This document shows positions 3,227-35,233 of a DNA stretch of 40,258 nucleotides, piece after piece. Under the pieces are notes generated by a model. The model worked only from the letters and a program-made list of their open reading frames with translations, had not been told where the DNA came from and ran no database searches. Both the position numbers and the translations under genes were made by a program. Positions within the stretch are counted from its first letter, which is position 1; each line of letters opens with the position of its first letter. The stretch is from the IMG/VR virus record IMGVR_UViG_2651869695_000011. One strand, given 5' to 3'. The stretch comes from a virus (Duplodnaviria; Heunggongvirae; Uroviricota; Caudoviricetes).

Positions 3227-5971
3227 TTAACCTTTAGAAAAAACAGACAGTAACGGAAGTGTAAAAGTCGACACACCAGTATTCATCATGCAGGTTTTAC
3301 CACCTGAGTATCCAGATATGGTTTGCGAAACTGGACTTCCTGTTGTTGGGAAAATGGTGATTTCATCCCCCCCCTTCAATACTCTAACTTTGCCTGTAAC
3401 ATCAACCGATGAACTTGAAACAGACGTGAGAGATCCGTTGGTCATTGTATAAAAGTTTATAGTTCCTGTTGCTGTTCTGCTTACACCACATCCTGATTTT
3501 TGCTTCTGTTTATAGTTAAACAATACCAGCAGGCCAACAGGCATTGACTCAAGCTCAACTGCTGTAGACTGGTAGGTCTTACTGCCGTTTCTCATGTCAG
3601 GAGCCTCATCATCTGGATCAGAAAAATTATACCCAAGAGTTAAATCATTAACCGTGGCATTATTCCCTGTTATTCCTTTGACTTGATTAACACTTAACGG
3701 TATGTAATTAAACCCTGCAAAAAGCGGTGTTAACTTTTCTCTAAATAAAAGGCCTGGTGGGTATACTAACGAAGGTGTACCATCATATGTCACTGAGATA
3801 ATATTAAGTCCCTTTTTAAGGGTTCCAATGCACGTTGTTTGTTTGCCTGTAAATGATGTTAGCCCATTGCTGGCAACTTTACCTGATAGATAAGAAGAGT
3901 TCCTGATGTCATTGAGAATGACATTGAACTGGTTAACACGATCTGATGAAGTATAAGTTGGGTTATATGGCTCAAATAATGTTACAGAGATATCGCTTGT
4001 ATCACTCCATACAAAATACCGACAAATAACATTTTCATTTGAAGGCGTAATCCTTCCCCATCCACCAAGTGCATCAAGATAATCACCTCCACTTAATATC
4101 GAAATTGATGGGTAGTATCTGGTATTTGAAGGGTATCCAATACCAATAAATGAAAGTTGAGTAGTAGGGATTAGGTTCTTATTTTTTACAGCTGTATAAA
4201 CGCGCTCTTTTAATACCTCTTTTGCAGCATAAGCACCGATGTATGCATGTCCTATCGTTGATGGATGGCTCTGGTCAAAGACAGTACCGCCGTCACGTTT
4301 GGCAACATCAGATATAGAGTACGCGCCTATATCTGCATAAGCGTCAGTCGTGGCAATGGACAAATCCAAAAACTCGACCTTTGGGAAAAGGCGTTCGATA
4401 CGCTTCTTAATGGCTGACTCCAGGAAAGCCTTTGGCGCATCGTTATTGTTTACAGTAACAAAGCATATCGGACAACCATATCCCCATGATTTTCTAATCA
4501 ACTTTTCAAACTCATGAAAATACGCTTCAAATCCTATTGTTGGAAGTATTCCATTGTCATTAAAACCAAGGCTTATAAAAAGAACATCAGGAGCTTTTTT
4601 TCCATACGCAGCATTCTGGAAAAATCCATAGTCGAAGTTTTCATAACCCCAACCTGTCGCAAGTGACTTGCCAGACGATCCGCAGTTATATGCTTTAAAA
4701 ATATTATCCGTGCTGTCGGATAGCATATTGAGGCAATCAGTAAAAATTCTGAACCATGAATGCTTACCGCCATTTAAATTATGATTGTAGTTGGTAGAGT
4801 TAAGATTTCCATCGCTACCAGTCGGGTTCGGGGTCCATCCTGAACTATAGGCTCCATCCGTTATAGAATCACCAATGATACCTACATGGCAATCTTCTAT
4901 AGTTGATTGGTAACTCTGCTTATTTGCAAATTTAGCAATTGTTCCAAGAGCAGTAAAATCAGGGCCATTGTTAGATAGCCCAACATCAAAAACATGCTCA
5001 TTACCCCATTTGTCTCTTGTGAGAATTTTACCTTCTCCAAGAAATTTAGTCACATCATCTGACGGTAAAAAATTACACCTGATGGTTACATCTTTTGGGA
5101 TGTAAATCTGACCAGGGAAAGCATAAATTGCACTTCTGTTGTCAGTTGTCGTGTTAATAACGACATTTGGAACATAAAATATTGACGTTGCGTCAGTTCT
5201 ATATTGTCCGTTAACAAGCTCAGATCTGAGAACCGCATCCCCAACACCTCTCCAAGCGCCAGGACCAACACCACCAGTAGTGGTAGGAGTTGATCCTGGA
5301 GGAACTACTTTGGGCAGTGGCCCGTCCCATCTGTAGTATTCGCCGTTGCTTTCCCAGAGAAGAACATCGTTAAGATAGATGATGGTATTACCCAACTCAA
5401 AAGATTTCTTCGTGTTATAGCCATACAATCCATTTTCTAAGGTTTCAATAATGGTGCTAAGTATGGTACTAAATTTTGCATAAAGATCATCAGTATATTT
5501 TTTTGTAGCAGCATCTTGGGGAAGAGATGGATCACGAAGATTTCTAATATAATTTGAAAGCGCGTCATAAAAAATTGCTACGTCATTTGGCTTTCTTAAA
5601 GCCAACTTATCATTTCTTAATGATTGTTGAATGAGCATAGTAAGTTTATCAAACGCATCCTCATGTACCTCAGCGAAGAACTTACCCTGATTACGTAAAT
5701 CCGTTTCCTGAGTAGCTGGTAGTTCTCGTGATATAGATATCTGATGACCGTTAGCCAACGCCTTCGAGAGAATTACATTACCGCCGTTATATCCTCCAGC
5801 CCCGGTAACTGTGTAATCAGTATCAAGAGCCAGCACAGCGATATTTTCGTCAAGGTCAACCACCTGTACTACCAGATCAGATTTATTGAAAACCCTAAAG
5901 GTGTACGGAAATGATGTCGTAACGCCGTTACCTGTGTATTCGTTGTGGTCAACTTCGGTTGAGACCGTCAT
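3227..5971 (-). CDS. Tailspike/tail fibre: T7 gp17-like N-terminal adaptor + SGNH (GDSL) esterase domain + C-terminal beta-rich domain
   Basis: N-terminus YTGNGVTTSFPYTF...DLVV...DYTVTG resembles podovirus fibre head-binding domain; SGNH blocks GIIGDSITDG (block I), ISLGFNDN (block III), DQSHPSTIGH (block V); SD GGAG 8 nt upstream; AT-rich body. Confidence 0.8.
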   Translation of the reverse strand: MTVSTEVDHNEYTGNGVTTSFPYTFRVFNKSDLVVQVVDLDENIAVLALDTDYTVTGAGGYNGGNVILSKALANGHQISISRELPATQETDLRNQGKFFAEVHEDAFDKLTMLIQQSLRNDKLALRKPNDVAIFYDALSNYIRNLRDPSLPQDAATKKYTDDLYAKFSTILSTIIETLENGLYGYNTKKSFELGNTIIYLNDVLLWESNGEYYRWDGPLPKVVPPGSTPTTTGGVGPGAWRGVGDAVLRSELVNGQYRTDATSIFYVPNVVINTTTDNRSAIYAFPGQIYIPKDVTIRCNFLPSDDVTKFLGEGKILTRDKWGNEHVFDVGLSNNGPDFTALGTIAKFANKQSYQSTIEDCHVGIIGDSITDGAYSSGWTPNPTGSDGNLNSTNYNHNLNGGKHSWFRIFTDCLNMLSDSTDNIFKAYNCGSSGKSLATGWGYENFDYGFFQNAAYGKKAPDVLFISLGFNDNGILPTIGFEAYFHEFEKLIRKSWGYGCPICFVTVNNNDAPKAFLESAIKKRIERLFPKVEFLDLSIATTDAYADIGAYSISDVAKRDGGTVFDQSHPSTIGHAYIGAYAAKEVLKERVYTAVKNKNLIPTTQLSFIGIGYPSNTRYYPSISILSGGDYLDALGGWGRITPSNENVICRYFVWSDTSDISVTLFEPYNPTYTSSDRVNQFNVILNDIRNSSYLSGKVASNGLTSFTGKQTTCIGTLKKGLNIISVTYDGTPSLVYPPGLLFREKLTPLFAGFNYIPLSVNQVKGITGNNATVNDLTLGYNFSDPDDEAPDMRNGSKTYQSTAVELESMPVGLLVLFNYKQKQKSGCGVSRTATGTINFYTMTNGSLTSVSSSSVDVTGKVRVLKGGDEITIFPTTGSPVSQTISGYSGGKTCMMNTGVSTFTLPLLSVFSKG

Positions 5972-6090: not shown

Positions 6091-6129
6091 TTCGCAAAAC
6101 GTGCTGGATAGCAAACAAATTATTTGCTA

Positions 6130-6145
6130 CTGTATAAATATACAG
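6130..6145 (+). promoter_or_regulatory. LexA (SOS) box
   Basis: CTGTATAAATATACAG matches CTGT-N8-ACAG with AT-rich core (consensus TACTGTATATATATACAGTA); 8 nt upstream of SD GGAG and ATG at 6167. Confidence 0.7.
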
Positions 6146-6166
6146 TTATTACATGGAGAAGATAAG

Positions 6167-6424
6167 ATGCAGCAGTATCACTATCCACTGGAAGACGGAT
6201 TTACCGAAAGGATTCACACGCCGGGAGGCGTCAGGTCACTGGTGGAGGGATCGCACTTGATGAAATTACTCCGGGATCTCGATAAGGATGGATTTAATGT
6301 CGATGGCCCACTTGCCGAACTGACTGCACTGATTAACTACGTCACCAGCTCACAGATGTCTATGCGGGATCTGCAAACACATCTCGACTATTGTGCCGAA
6401 CAATTACGAAAACAAACCAGATAA
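6167..6424 (+). CDS. Small antirepressor-like protein (stand-alone paralogue of the Bro-N protein C-terminal domain), LexA-controlled
   Basis: 85 aa; SD GGAG at 6154-6157; aligns with last ~70 aa of the 6740-7450 product (shared IH.P.GV..L.E.S.LM.LL..L..DG..V.G..AELT...Y......RD.QTH..Y). Upstream GTG 6101 extension rejected. Confidence 0.5.
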   Translation: MQQYHYPLEDGFTERIHTPGGVRSLVEGSHLMKLLRDLDKDGFNVDGPLAELTALINYVTSSQMSMRDLQTHLDYCAEQLRKQTR

Positions 6425-6560
6425 GATTTGAAATTACCAAGAGGAGTGCTTATATTTACCTTTGCGGTAAATTTACATCGCACTCCTCTTGTGCCATAGT
6501 AATCGGGCACTGGCAAAATCCAGTGCCGGGATTGGCGTCCCGAGTTACTAAGTGGCGCAT

Positions 6561-6583
6561 ACCACGCCAGACGTGGTTTTTTT
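6561..6583 (+). terminator. Rho-independent terminator
   Basis: ACCACG-CCAGA-CGTGGT hairpin followed by TTTTTTT. Confidence 0.55.
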
Positions 6584-6739
6584 ATGCGTTAAGCACAGCC
6601 ATATCCGAATTATGGTGGGCTGGGCAGGGGTCCGAAAGGACGCCGGTACCACTTAGGCCGGTACGCCAACCTTGTCCAGTTCACCACCAGTAATTGGCGT
6701 TGCGGTGGTGATTAAAATCACTAAGTGGAGATAACCACC

Positions 6740-7450
6740 ATGGCTAATGCTCAAACTGCCATCTTCAAATTTGAATCTGTTAACCCTATCCGTTCCATCA
6801 TTATCGATGGCCAACCATGGTTTGTAGCCCAAGACGTTTGTAGTGCGCTGCGTATCCAAAACGTCACCCAAGCACTTGAAAAACTGGATGATGATGAAAG
6901 GTCTATGTTCAACATAGGGCATGAACATCGTGCAATTTTTGACAGCCGAGTAAAAGAGATCAACATCATCTCCGAGTCAGGCCTCTACACACTGATCCTC
7001 CGCTGCCGCGATGCGGTGACACCAGGCACTATCCCCTACCGCTTTCGTAAATGGGTTACAGGTGAGGTTCTTCCTCAGATCCGCCGCACCGGAAGTTACA
7101 TTAAAAACTCGCTCCCGCAGGAAGAACGCATAAAGATGGTTGCCGACCAGGTAGCCAACGCCACAGCATCAGCAGTGATGCAGGCAATGAAGATAGAGAA
7201 CAAAACCTACAGTGCCCCACTGAAGCCCGGCTACCGCAGTCTGATTCATTCTCCGTCTGGTGTTCTCGGCCTGACGGAGAACTCACTGCTGATGAATTTG
7301 CTGAACCAGTTGCAGGAAGACGGGCACGATGTATCGGGCGCGGCGGCGGAGCTGACCACCATGTTTTGCTACATCGTTGGTGTGAGCAAATGCCTGCGTG
7401 ATATCCAGACTCACGCGGAGTACATCAACGACAAGGCTGGGTTCTTCTGA
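6740..7450 (+). CDS. Bro-N domain antirepressor-family protein
   Basis: Classical Bro-N signature (FKFESVNPIRSIIIDGQPWFVAQDVCSAL...LDDDE...ISESGLYTLIL...FRKWVTGEVLPQIRRTG); SD GGAG 9 nt upstream of ATG 6740; C-terminal domain paralogous to 6167-6424. Confidence 0.75.
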   Translation: MANAQTAIFKFESVNPIRSIIIDGQPWFVAQDVCSALRIQNVTQALEKLDDDERSMFNIGHEHRAIFDSRVKEINIISESGLYTLILRCRDAVTPGTIPYRFRKWVTGEVLPQIRRTGSYIKNSLPQEERIKMVADQVANATASAVMQAMKIENKTYSAPLKPGYRSLIHSPSGVLGLTENSLLMNLLNQLQEDGHDVSGAAAELTTMFCYIVGVSKCLRDIQTHAEYINDKAGFF

Positions 7451-7597
7451 CGGGCGGCGGCACAGGGATGTGCCTTTAAATAATTCTGTACAGATTGCAG
7501 ACTGTGGGTGAATAGCGTACTATTACCTCAAGGGTAAACGGATTGGTTTCATTTTTATTAATCCGTGTAATGAACTTATGAGATATGAGGTAATGTC

Positions 7598-7777
7598 ATG
7601 CGAAACGAAAAATTGCAGATGCGTAGAGCGCAAGCTGCCGCAAGACGTTCTTTCAATGGAAGCGTAGAGTACGTAAAAGTTACTATGACAAAAGATCACG
7701 CAAGTCGCGTATCCCGAGCTTTCTTTGATTCTCGTAACAATAAGGAAAATTATGAGTTCGTCTGCGTCGCAGAATGA
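7598..7777 (+). CDS. Small basic protein (59 aa), possible DNA-binding or antitoxin-like partner
   Basis: Not in ORF track (below size cutoff); good SD TGAGGTAA 6 nt upstream of ATG; Arg-rich N-terminus; 3' end overlaps start of next gene in a different frame. Confidence 0.3.
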   Translation: MRNEKLQMRRAQAAARRSFNGSVEYVKVTMTKDHASRVSRAFFDSRNNKENYEFVCVAE

Positions 7778-8297
7778 TAAAAATCAAATTGTCAGATATA
7801 AGGGTCGAGTATTGCATACGCAAAATTTCTCGGCCCTTTGTGCATCTGATCTTGAGCTGAAGAAAGTATCTGATGCCTTTACCCAGTATTGGAAAACGGG
7901 ATACCATCCATCTCTTGGTAAAGATGCTGCATTTGCTCGTCCGACAGAAATGCTTAAACTAAATGTCAGGCATACTCATGTCGATAACCAAGACTATATT
8001 CCAGAAGATAGTGATAAAAAACACACTGGTAAAAAATCATCTTGGGATGCATGGAAAAATATAGCGTCTGTGCAAGTAAAATGCATACCAACAAGTGATT
8101 GCTTTTTAGTTTATTCGGTAAATCACAATCGTGATGCGCTGGTTATGTTTTTTGTTGACGCAGATGCCCACAACATAACTGAGCAAGAAGAGTTTAAAGA
8201 GGAAGCAATCACTATCAGTTATCAATTCTTTGAGAAAACAAAAACAGAACCAATGCCTTTAGAAGAAGATCTTTTTTCTGATAAATGGAAGGAATAA
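7752..8297 (+). CDS. Hypothetical moron protein (181 aa), no family recognised
   Basis: SD AAGGA 7 nt upstream of ATG 7752; AT-rich codon usage unlike neighbouring virion genes; followed by a strong terminator. Confidence 0.5.
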   Translation: MSSSASQNDKNQIVRYKGRVLHTQNFSALCASDLELKKVSDAFTQYWKTGYHPSLGKDAAFARPTEMLKLNVRHTHVDNQDYIPEDSDKKHTGKKSSWDAWKNIASVQVKCIPTSDCFLVYSVNHNRDALVMFFVDADAHNITEQEEFKEEAITISYQFFEKTKTEPMPLEEDLFSDKWKE

Positions 8298-8319
8298 GCC
8301 CGCGTTGCGGGCTTTTTTG
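8296..8319 (+). terminator. Rho-independent terminator
   Basis: GCCCGC-GTT-GCGGGC then TTTTTTG immediately after the stop codon. Confidence 0.65.
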
Positions 8320-8356
8320 TGTCTGCGGATTCCCGCCCGGGCGGCGGTGGCATTCG

Positions 8357-8383
8357 TTAAAAACAAGGCCGCGAAAGCGGCCT
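8357..8383 (-). terminator. Rho-independent terminator of the virion operon (minus strand)
   Basis: On minus strand GGCCGC-TTTC-GCGGCC followed by TTGTTTTTAA. Confidence 0.55.
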
Positions 8384-8395
8384 GTGACATGTCAC
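8384..8395. repeat. 12-bp perfect palindrome GTGACATGTCAC (copy 1 of 3)
   Basis: Exact 12-mer between convergent terminators at the moron/virion boundary. Confidence 0.6.
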
Positions 8396-8396
8396 G

Positions 8397-8957
8397 CTAC
8401 ATTGATATATGATTCATAAAGTAGCTTAAAGATTTACTTCCCAGAAAAGAAATTTCTTTTCCTGGATATGTCGCAATAATTGAGCATGACTTATCCCCGT
8501 TAGAGGTAACAAATCCTGAATAACCTACTTGTTCTTTACCATTTTGTTGCTTGGCTAAAAAGTAGAGGTAGCTTATCTTTTTGCCCTCTGGGTAAAACTC
8601 TGCCAAACCAGTATCGGTGATTGAATATTTTATTCTCCCGCCTTGAGTAACGTTTTCCATCTCAAGTTTAGCTATGTCTTTTCTGTTGTATTCAGCATTG
8701 ATTTTCCTTTCGAAATCAATGTTGTTTTCAAATGAGTAGGAAGCAACAGTCTGAATAGATGGGAACACGTTTATCTGGATGCCTCCACAGTCGGCACAGG
8801 TATAAAGGTATGAATCAGATGGAATCCCCATAAAAGAAAACTGAGTTACCTTAAATTTATCGTTATCTCCAAAGTATTGAAGTTCGCATTTAACATTTTG
8901 CCCTGCAAAAGAAAATGCAGACATCAATATTGAAACAAAAAATATAATTGCCTTCAT
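8397..8957 (-). CDS. Secreted protein (cleavable signal peptide), function unknown; last gene of virion operon
   Basis: N-terminus MKAIIFFVSILMSAFSFA|GQ; start 2 nt after stop of upstream 850-aa virion gene; markedly AT-rich. Confidence 0.55.
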   Translation of the reverse strand: MKAIIFFVSILMSAFSFAGQNVKCELQYFGDNDKFKVTQFSFMGIPSDSYLYTCADCGGIQINVFPSIQTVASYSFENNIDFERKINAEYNRKDIAKLEMENVTQGGRIKYSITDTGLAEFYPEGKKISYLYFLAKQQNGKEQVGYSGFVTSNGDKSCSIIATYPGKEISFLGSKSLSYFMNHISM

Positions 8958-25033: not shown

Positions 25034-25113
25034 ATTATTACCAATTTAACCACATATGATTTATTTATCGTAGATAGTTGACATTTAACGCATGAATTAT
25101 TACCTTTAAGGTA
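25034..25113. promoter_or_regulatory. Bipartite upstream element of the head operon / tRNA promoter region: ATTACC-AATTTAACCACATATG, TTGACA, palindrome TTACCTTTAAGGTAA
   Basis: AACCACATATG at 25047-25057; TTGACA at 25077-25082; palindrome at 25099-25113. Confidence 0.45.
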
Positions 25114-25436
25114 AGCAAAGAGTTCATTCCGGTTACTAACCTGACTGGCTTGTCGTTAAATTGAACAGGTGGAGTGAGCTTTTATTTTGAGCAGTACGGC
25201 GTATGGCACATGCGCCGATAGCGGTCTGGATACGTTTAAGGGGCACCCTCCCTTGCTCGGGCAAACGAACCAGCTAGCCGGAATGTGCAAGTCGAGCGGT
25301 TTTATTCCGCGCACGGGGATTCACCATCCCGGCGATTCGGTGTGACGCCTCGGAAGAGACGAGGGTACAACGATGAGAGCATTTATGGAGCCGCGACAAA
25401 GTGTGGCGCCTTAACAGGCTAAGTGCTCTCAGCGTT

Positions 25437-25513
25437 GTGGCATTAGCTCAGTTGGACAGAGCAACCGCCTTCTAAGCGGTTGGTCGCAGGTTCGAATCCT
25501 GCATGCCGCGCCA
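25437..25513 (+). tRNA. tRNA-Arg (anticodon UCU)
   Basis: Cloverleaf by hand: acceptor GTGGCAT/ATGCCGC (one U-G pair), D-arm GCTC-AGTTGGACA-GAGC, anticodon arm ACCGC-CTTCTAA-GCGGT, T-arm GCAGG-TTCGAAT-CCTGC, discriminator G, encoded CCA; close to enterobacterial argU. Confidence 0.85.
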
Positions 25514-34129: not shown

Positions 34130-34360
34130 TCATGAGTAGAAGAAGTATGCCAGTTCTGCTTTTGAGCGCAGCCATTGTCTTGTTTTACAGGCTTTAAAAA
34201 GCCCATCCATCAATACCTTACCTGGCATTTTGCGCTTACCTGTTAAGTGAGTCTGGATATAGTGACTCGTCGTTCCGGCTTCCTGTGCGAAGGCTTCACG
34301 CTCATCCGGAGTAAGTGCAAGCCAGTGCTTTTTGAAATCGAAATGTCCGTTATCGCTCAT
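34130..34360 (-). CDS. Cro-like HTH regulator
   Basis: 76 aa with HTH-like segment (EAFAQEAGTTSHYIQTHLTGKR); divergent from repressor across the operator cluster; candidate promoter TTGTTA-N17-TATTAT upstream. Confidence 0.5.
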   Translation of the reverse strand: MSDNGHFDFKKHWLALTPDEREAFAQEAGTTSHYIQTHLTGKRKMPGKVLMDGLFKACKTRQWLRSKAELAYFFYS

Positions 34361-34514: not shown

Positions 34515-35099
34515 ATGAAAAGTATCCAGGACGTCCGCAGGCAAAATCTCAACGACTTGATCGACCGTGAATTCAATGGTGTTCAGACGCGGATGGCAGA
34601 AAAACTTGGAACTCAGGCAAATCTGGTAAACCGCTGGGCTCTTGGCAAGAAGGTTATCGGCGACCAGGTTGCGCGAAAAATTGAAGCTGCCGCCAATAAG
34701 CCCCGTAACTGGCTTGATATCGATCGCTCGCTTTCTCAGGAAGGTTTTCAGCCTGTCGGCCCAAGCGACATTGGTCAGCTGGCGGCCCACAACCTGGAAC
34801 GCTGGATGAGCGAAAGCCGCGACCTTTCAACACAGGGAAAACTTCACCGCGCATCCGGAGTCGCCCAGGTGACAATCAGCCGCCTGTTAAACAATGAGGT
34901 CAGCGTTTCCATTTCCACCCTGGAGAATGTTGCATCTGCATTCGGGCGTCACGGATATGAACTACTGATTCACCCGCACGACCCTGCAACTATCAACTAT
35001 GACCGCTCGCGCTACGCATTGTTACCTGAAACCGAGAAAGCAAAGATCGAAAGTTACATTGAATTTGTCATCAACCAGAACGAAAAAAACAAACAATAA
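34515..35099 (+). CDS. Prophage repressor, two HTH-like segments, no recognisable S24 peptidase/autocleavage domain
   Basis: HTH-like segments at about residues 20-65 and 110-155; no Ala-Gly/Ser-Lys LexA-like C-domain; no SD within 12 nt of ATG (possibly leaderless). Confidence 0.6.
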   Translation: MKSIQDVRRQNLNDLIDREFNGVQTRMAEKLGTQANLVNRWALGKKVIGDQVARKIEAAANKPRNWLDIDRSLSQEGFQPVGPSDIGQLAAHNLERWMSESRDLSTQGKLHRASGVAQVTISRLLNNEVSVSISTLENVASAFGRHGYELLIHPHDPATINYDRSRYALLPETEKAKIESYIEFVINQNEKNKQ

Positions 35100-35156: not shown

Positions 35157-35233
35157 TTACCTGTTGGGTGATTTTTTTAACTCATATCTATTGACATCAA
35201 ACCAGATACGAATAATTATTACCTCAACGGTAG
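35157..35233 (+). promoter_or_regulatory. O_L/P_L-like operator-promoter driving the recombination/xis/methylase operon
   Basis: TTACCTGTTGGGTGA (35157-35171); -35 TTGACA (35191-35196), 17-bp spacer, -10 AATTAT (35214-35219); TTACCTCAACGGTAG (35219-35233) over the start site. Confidence 0.55.

Follow-up and report, generated by a model that had tools for sequence, protein, structure and literature searches.

What does the AT-rich two-gene cassette at positions 7598 to 8297 of this DNA encode, and which circuit controls its expression? The window, that is, the whole stretch of 40,258 nucleotides analysed here, is an Epsilon15/phiV10-like (Uetakevirus) E. coli prophage. A previous sequence-only reading had described the cassette as an uncharacterised moron in which a small basic gene precedes a larger effector. 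We conclude that it is a two-gene type II toxin-antitoxin-like module and that its large gene belongs to a known family, YafO, and not to an unknown one. What is new is the small, usually unannotated partner and the placement of the pair behind a promoter and operator owned by the phage. In the literature searched we found no experimental work on the pair; the papers on phage TL-2011b and on Uetakevirus do not discuss it, and the mentions of YafO-like genes in prophages that we found there are by annotation only (PMC9836087, PMC12066637).

The cassette is exchangeable cargo in a prophage slot

The cargo and its parts are as follows.

7541-8321, + strand: exchangeable cargo (5′-UTR, both genes and the terminator), delimited by the homology break against phage phiv142-3 and by GC content
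7538-7566, + strand: 10-bp hairpin in the 5′-UTR (arms 7538-7547 and 7557-7566), unconserved and of doubtful significance
7598-7777, + strand: gene for a 59-aa basic protein, probable antitoxin, identified by its Shine-Dalgarno (SD) sequence GAGGT (7587-7591, 6 nt 5′ of the ATG), dN/dS and co-occurrence with the toxin gene
7752-8297, + strand: codes for the 181-aa toxin, a long form of the YafO family whose fold is of the RelE/ParE type; SD AAGGA (7742-7746), 5 nt before the ATG and within the small gene
8296-8321, + strand: intrinsic terminator that ends the cargo, with an 8-bp stem of which 6 pairs are G-C, a 3-nt loop and a T-run

Much of the geometry proposed previously was confirmed. The two open reading frames overlap by 26 nt in different frames, each with its own SD site, and the small one is indeed Arg-rich, with 8 Arg and 4 Lys in a protein of pI 10.0. 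GC content is 0.385 in the cargo compared with 0.496 in the whole window, 0.508 in the BRO gene upstream and 0.55 in the injection-protein gene downstream, and the strong terminator at the cassette end was recovered by the terminator scan, which placed the stem at 8296-8314 with the T-run after it. The hairpin that had been pointed out in front of the cassette also exists, but there is nothing notable about it: its fold energy is ordinary (z = -1.49) and it falls in an indel region of the alignment of divergent loci, and we discarded it as a functional element. No Rfam family was found inside the cassette.

The region 7450-8400 is 98.7% identical to that of phage TL-2011b. Among 5426 complete E. 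coli genomes, 61 have prophages with a 99-100% identical copy of it and 523 have the flanks, so that the cassette occupies 61 of the 523 flank-carrying genomes, or ∼12% of the related prophages. In phiv142-3, homology to the window stops at about 7540 and restarts at about 8322, and three unrelated small ORFs lie in between. The cassette is thus exchangeable cargo in an accessory slot that has the antirepressor genes on one side and the injection-protein genes on the other.

Downstream lies a convergent gene of 186 aa (8397-8957, - strand), which is very AT-rich (GC 0.353) and has its own terminator at 8383-8366. Its product has a signal-peptide-like segment at the N-terminus, matches PHROG 11983 (unknown function) and gave neither a Pfam nor a PADLOC match. 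The position of this gene is variable in the related loci checked, and we consider it a second, independent piece of accessory cargo beside the cassette.

The large gene encodes a divergent long-form member of the YafO family

The large gene starts at the ATG at 7752; a longer version from TTG 7725 was rejected because the homologues all start at MSSSAS. Its product had been thought to have no recognisable family, a view that does not survive comparison with Pfam, where it matched YafO_toxin (PF13957) over residues 46-152 and model positions 3-92 of 101 with a marginal score of 26.3 bits (gathering score 25; E = 8e-6). RefSeq already names the protein "type II toxin-antitoxin system YafO family toxin" (WP_001555612.1; TL-2011b gp44), and the sequence also matches PHROG 1651. 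No NCBIfam family was found for the cassette. According to the literature, PF_YafO is one of 13 BECR-fold families of type II toxins, with the order antitoxin then toxin and mRNA degradation as its activity, while the ribosome dependence of YafO is still debated (PMC11980606).

Because the Pfam score was marginal and a BLASTP comparison of the 181-aa protein with E. coli K-12 YafO (reference sequence from NC_000913.3) was not significant, we tested family membership independently. Alignment by hhalign against the single K-12 YafO sequence gave a probability of 6%. A profile built from 23 close homologues retrieved only 70 cluster representatives (at 50% identity) from 1.84 billion proteins, and these grade continuously from long forms of 165-200 aa into canonical YafO-like proteins of 131-150 aa. 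PF13957 was matched by 33 of 60 relatives found in the profile search, the best at 1e-39.

Several motifs aligned with K-12 YafO: F43-x-x-Y, G56-[KR]-D58, R63-P64, H74-x-H76, S115-D, Y121 and A-H140. An alignment of 60 sequences, K-12 YafO among them, showed two invariant residues, G56 and H76, and at least 90% conservation of F43, D58, P64, S115, Y121 and H140; K-12 YafO has Ser in the P64 column and Asn in the S115 column. The 181-aa protein keeps every residue conserved across the family, with Lys at the variable position of the G56-[KR]-D58 motif and with F43, R63-P64, H74-x-H76, S115-D, Y121 and A-H140 all in place. To our knowledge, the catalytic residues of YafO have never been defined experimentally.

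Structure prediction pointed in the same direction. An AlphaFold2 model from the 23 close homologues was poor (pLDDT 57), and the 70-sequence alignment was used instead, which gave a model with a pLDDT of 92.5 and a pTM of 0.87. The predicted structure has the RelE/ParE (BECR) fold. A Foldseek search with this model returned no significant match, and a sequence search of the PDB with the toxin found chance matches only and no YafO structure. All in all, we assign the 181-aa product to the YafO family as a divergent long form that has a RelE/HigB-type endoribonuclease fold; this membership rests on the Pfam match, the profile continuum and the fold.

Compared with canonical YafO, the long form has an insert of ∼35 aa at about residues 78-117 and a conserved C-terminal extension of 18 aa (PMPLxEDLFSDKW). 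The gene is under strong purifying selection (dN/dS 0.065-0.086). The toxin is acidic (pI 5.8) and its partner basic, which is the reverse of the usual charge pattern of RelE-type pairs.

The 59-aa upstream ORF is a real gene and a probable antitoxin

RefSeq/PGAP calls the YafO-family toxin and omits the 59-aa ORF in the two E. coli chromosomes that we inspected (L001 and L058), where the toxin looks like an orphan because the ORF upstream of it is not called; in TL-2011b it is annotated as hypothetical gp45. This omission is what favours a chance ORF, or an untranslated leader, in front of a toxin gene that acts alone. The coding signal argues against it. In the part outside the overlap (codons 1-51), dN/dS was 0.16-0.22 in frame and 1.2-2.2 in the other two frames, which supports a real gene on the question, raised before, of whether the ORF is translated. 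Moreover, divergent loci all have the same SD and start context, and the ORF was intact in 45 of 45 loci checked.

Conservation of the pair, which had been proposed as a check, was found throughout the long-form loci. A homologous small ORF lies 5′ of every long-form toxin examined, including those in other phage types and genera, and such partners persist down to ∼20-30% identity beside toxins that are ∼30-45% identical to the one in the window. In all 13 compiled long-form loci, the stop codon of the small ORF either falls within the toxin gene or precedes its start by 2 nt; at one further long-form locus it ends 76 nt upstream of the toxin. The partner is usually 53-84 aa long and reaches 133 aa in one locus, which was left out of the small-protein alignment and of the identity correlation. 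Pairwise identities of partners and toxins correlated with r = 0.94 (78 pairs). The chance-ORF reading is effectively refuted: purifying selection acts on the 59-aa ORF, which is a real gene and is co-inherited with the toxin gene.

The 59-aa protein has a basic N-terminus (AAARR), a strand-like segment (VKVTMTK), a helix-like segment and a C-terminal N-Y-E-F with an invariant Glu53. The small proteins align over their full length with the same layout, namely a basic N-terminus, VKVTMTK-like and helix-like segments and a C-terminal [YN]-E-[FL] with the invariant Glu. Because part of the N-Y-E-F motif overlaps the toxin start codon in several lineages, its codons including the ATG, conservation of the motif could be partly at the nucleotide level; L056 and L051 nevertheless have the motif without this overlap. 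The only decayed copy found (L045) has an 8-bp deletion that frameshifts the toxin gene and leaves the small ORF intact.

We found no link to a known antitoxin. The protein matches PHROG 6685, and 5.8 billion clusters yielded 33 members of its family, all of them unnamed and none with a Pfam domain. Pfam antitoxin families gave no match to 18 family members even at E ≤ 10, and Pfam recognised no DNA-binding domain in the 59-aa protein. BLASTP against YafN gave zero alignment, and the PDB sequence search yielded chance matches only. Two canonical short YafO relatives have partners of 52-62 aa, also with no Pfam match on record. Since it is an adjacent, co-directional and tightly spaced companion of a member of a known toxin superfamily, as in type II systems, the 59-aa protein is a probable antitoxin. 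The idea of a toxin-antitoxin-like pair, put forward from the sequence, thus stands as far as the YafO/RelE-fold effector and the co-inherited small gene are concerned; the effector itself was not undescribed, as it already has a public annotation.

Some related loci have a particular layout. In one (L049:2136-2523), two tandem paralogues of the small partner (58 and 55 aa) precede a single toxin gene. Another (L048:4085-4681) has an OspG-kinase-like gene just 3′, beyond a 49-aa gene on the opposite strand, and in two more (L055 and L056) the cassette lies directly 5′ of a type I restriction-modification gene.

The cassette lies behind a putative promoter and operator of the phage backbone

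Three elements of the phage backbone precede the cargo.

7459-7481, + strand: GC-rich hairpin GGCACA-GGGA-TGTGCC followed by TTTAAAT, right after the stop codon of the BRO-N gene, recognised from its sequence
7495-7523, + strand: putative sigma-70 slot promoter, with -35 TTGCAG (7495-7500), a 17-nt spacer and -10 TACTAT (7518-7523)
7523-7537, no strand assigned: operator-like palindrome TTACC-TCAAG-GGTAA, over the -10/+1 of the slot promoter

Most of the aligned divergent loci keep the hairpin, which fails the T-run criterion of the terminator scan; it is probably a weak terminator that isolates the slot. The putative promoter has 7 of 12 consensus positions, which is under the threshold of the promoter scan. 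Its -10 reads TAATAT in most related loci, and the stretch 7495-7523 is identical in phiv142-3 despite the different cargo there.

The palindrome noted in front of the cassette is present, but it is not specific to it. TTACC-N5-GGTAA occurs at 15 sites in the window, 8 of them exact, against 0.67 expected (6076, 6456, 7523, 25100, 28227/28245, 32076, 32138, 34060, 34397, ∼34424, 34445, 35157 and 35219). Three of these sites fall in the intergenic region that separates a cro-like gene transcribed leftward (34130-34360) from a rightward gene for a 194-aa HTH repressor-like protein (34515-35099), and others precede antirepressor, replication, terminase and tRNA units. In many transcription units the palindrome coincides with a -10-like hexamer or comes just after it. 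The palindromes at 6456, 7523 and 35219 begin on the last base of a -10-like hexamer, 17 nt past a -35-like hexamer, so that the layout of the slot promoter recurs at 6428-6456 and at about 35191-35219. The copy in front of the cassette is invariant in 8 divergent loci. We considered the possibility that it is the module's own operator, bound by the antitoxin, and rejected it in view of the 15 sites in the window, its retention in phiv142-3, which has no cassette, and its absence from distant cassettes in other phage types.

These results indicate that the palindrome and the adjoining putative promoter are elements of the phage backbone and common to many transcription units. The dispersed palindromes, of which we found no description in the literature searched, resemble a genome-wide set of operators for the prophage repressor, comparable to the C1 operators of P1. 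No promoter or operator borne by the cargo was found, nor was there a LexA box (CTGT-N8-ACAG) in 7400-7600, the nearest one being at 6130-6145 before a different gene. Because the backbone palindrome recurs at the repressor/cro region and lies outside the cargo (∼7541-8321), expression of the cassette is probably tied to the phage repressor, or to Cro; the protein that binds the palindrome and control by repressor or Cro are read solely from the positions of the sites.

This arrangement bears on whether the cassette is a moron. In lambdoid phages, in the definition of Hendrix and Juhala, a moron is an extra transcription unit with deviant GC content, patchy presence and its own promoter and terminator, and its hallmark is expression that is independent of phage circuits. 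The cassette resembles these morons in its deviant GC content, its own terminator and its presence in only some related phages. Unlike them, it uses a promoter that is outside the inserted unit, belongs to the backbone slot and carries a phage operator, and because of this a moron-like independence from phage circuits is doubtful.

Other elements of the prophage

Directly 5′ of the BRO-N antirepressor gene (6725-7450), Rfam recognised isrK at 6507-6583 (67 bits) and a C4 antisense RNA at 6608-6691 (66 bits), both on the + strand, together with an a1/b1 target element at 6494-6546 just under the gathering score; all of them lie behind a promoter that bears the palindrome at 6456. The region 6494-6691 is a P1-type immI (c4-ant) control unit in a podophage. 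Farther upstream, a near-perfect LexA box, taCTGTATAAATATACAGtt, is located at 6128-6147 (+ strand), ∼20 nt 5′ of the SD/ATG (6167) of an 85-aa gene (6167-6424). The product of this gene has the C-terminal domain of the BRO-N antirepressor (PHROG 450) and is probably a small, SOS-inducible antirepressor.

The 194-aa repressor-like protein (34515-35099, + strand) has an HTH_3 domain at residues 106-147 and a weaker HTH-like match at 21-61, and a peptidase S24 domain is absent from it. For this reason, the prophage would be induced through antirepressors rather than through RecA-mediated cleavage. A tRNA-Arg gene (anticodon TCT; 25437-25513, + strand) lies 3′ of a TTGACA box and of the palindrome copy at 25100 (region 25078-25513); the terminase and portal genes around it are on the other strand. 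The tailspike gene (3227-5971, - strand) encodes G7C gp63.1-type domains and a GDSL esterase domain, which suggests a receptor-binding protein that deacetylates O-antigen.

Comparison with known toxin-antitoxin systems

The closest known system is YafN-YafO of E. coli K-12 (dinB-yafNOP; PMC2814082, PMC11980606; Zhang, Yamaguchi and Inouye 2009, as cited there), with which the cassette shares the toxin family PF13957 and its motifs (FxxY, G-[KR]-D, RP, HxH, SD, LxY and AH), the order antitoxin then toxin with a small upstream partner, and the predicted activity, namely cleavage of mRNA that inhibits translation. The differences are also clear. The cassette toxin has 181 aa, including the ∼35-aa insert and the 18-aa extension, whereas YafO has 132; the partner is basic and has 59 aa, whereas YafN is a Phd/YefM-type protein of 97 aa to which it has no similarity. 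YafN-YafO belongs to a chromosomal SOS operon; in contrast, the cassette has no LexA box and is prophage cargo under a phage promoter and operator.

HigB2 of Vibrio cholerae (PDB 5mje and 8a0x) and HigB1 of M. tuberculosis (PDB 7nbu) are ribosome-dependent mRNases of the RelE superfamily. The cassette toxin is only 8-9% identical to them, with Foldseek E-values that are not significant, and is ∼75 residues longer, and HigBA systems differ further in that the toxin gene comes first and the antitoxin has an HTH. Phage P1 phd-doc and other type II addiction modules of prophages and plasmids resemble the cassette as small two-gene units, carried in the P1 case on a temperate phage, with the antitoxin gene first and with translational coupling of the genes, which is probable in the cassette. 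However, Doc is a Fic kinase from an unrelated toxin family, and phd-doc is autoregulated from its own promoter, whereas the cassette is promoterless cargo behind a phage operator.

A proposed mechanism and its alternatives

We propose, with a probability of roughly 0.6, that the cassette is a type II toxin-antitoxin-like module in which an mRNase is neutralised by its small partner and which is carried as phage-controlled cargo. In this proposal the toxin would arrest translation by cutting mRNA, probably at the ribosome, where E. coli YafO is reported to act, and the 59-aa basic protein would bind and neutralise the toxin, most likely through its conserved C-terminal N-Y-E-F segment. Co-inheritance of the two genes and the single copy that decayed in the toxin only lend such neutralisation indirect support. 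Translational coupling over the 26-nt overlap may fix the ratio of partner to toxin. Having no promoter of its own, the cargo would be read from the backbone promoter, and since the phage-wide operator covers the -10/+1 of that promoter, the prophage repressor probably keeps the pair off until induction or infection, in place of the autoregulation of classical type II systems. A bolder version, which we offer only tentatively, has the pair, as a long-form RelE-fold RNase and a member of a hitherto unrecognised family of small basic antitoxins, wired into the lysis-lysogeny switch, with no autoregulation, silenced by the repressor through the dispersed operator and released only when the prophage is induced or a cell infected, as a device for host shutoff or against competitors.

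The same molecules might instead serve the lysogen, in abortive-infection defence or superinfection exclusion; leaky expression would then keep the complex in the cell, and an incoming phage that shuts off host expression would let the labile small protein decay and release the RNase. In keeping with such a role, the cassette occupies a variable accessory slot, in 61 of the 523 flank-carrying genomes and with other cargo in phiv142-3, a distant relative adjoins a type I restriction-modification gene, and the RelE/ParE superfamily includes defence toxins (PMC11980606). Against this, a search of PADLOC-DB 2.0 (E ≤ 1) gave zero matches for either cassette protein or for two neighbouring proteins, and the sole promoter is under a phage-wide operator that is also present in the repressor/cro region, which suggests repression in the lysogen and argues against free expression there. 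Nothing that we found showed the defensive role advanced in the sequence-only reading, and we regard it as unlikely. A lytic-phase effector would be placed on the other side of the switch: once the repressor is gone, the RNase would remodel or shut off host translation or block co-infecting phages, and the small protein would time or limit its activity. The operator over the slot promoter agrees with this, as do the unrelated phiv142-3 cargo driven by the same promoter and operator, the same palindrome on the neighbouring antirepressor units and the lack of a promoter or operator in the cargo itself. Yet this reading comes from the positions of the sites only, the phage mRNAs too would suffer from an untargeted mRNA endonuclease, and a cassette present in only ∼12% of related prophages is dispensable for lytic growth, all of which makes it a rather improbable explanation. 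Addiction is another candidate role.

A further alternative concerns the activity of the protein. The 181-aa product might be a catalytically tame RelE-fold protein, for example a regulator that binds RNA or the ribosome, and the 59-aa protein its co-factor, its chaperone or a DNA- or RNA-binding regulator. The unusual charges of the acidic toxin and its basic partner, the insert and the PMPLxEDLFSDKW extension that canonical YafO lacks, and the absence, as far as is known, of experimentally defined catalytic residues in YafO would all be compatible with this. We nevertheless consider it very improbable, because the conserved His, Asp, Arg and Tyr of the family are all retained under strong purifying selection, because the strict arrangement with an upstream partner in overlapping or nearly abutting genes is typical of toxin-antitoxin systems, and because the decayed copy has lost the reading frame of the toxin only and keeps its partner intact. 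The toxin-antitoxin-like module is therefore the explanation that we retain.

Significance

YafO is among the least understood RelE-type toxins, and no PDB structure of it was found by sequence. The long forms that this locus defines make up a rare branch of the family (∼70 clusters at 50% identity), which is consistently accompanied by an unannotated family of small proteins. If this partner were named, the "orphan toxin" annotations in the E. coli chromosomes that we inspected would be put right. Should the pair prove to be an ordinary toxin-antitoxin system with no phage phenotype, the gain would be an improved annotation only. If instead the wiring into the lysis-lysogeny switch were true, the small-protein family would explain many YafO toxins that appear as "orphans" devoid of an antitoxin. 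The pair is a compact system for the structural study of YafO neutralisation, and its phage-owned promoter and operator bear on when prophage toxin-antitoxin systems act, in the lysogen, as addiction or defence modules, or during lytic growth.
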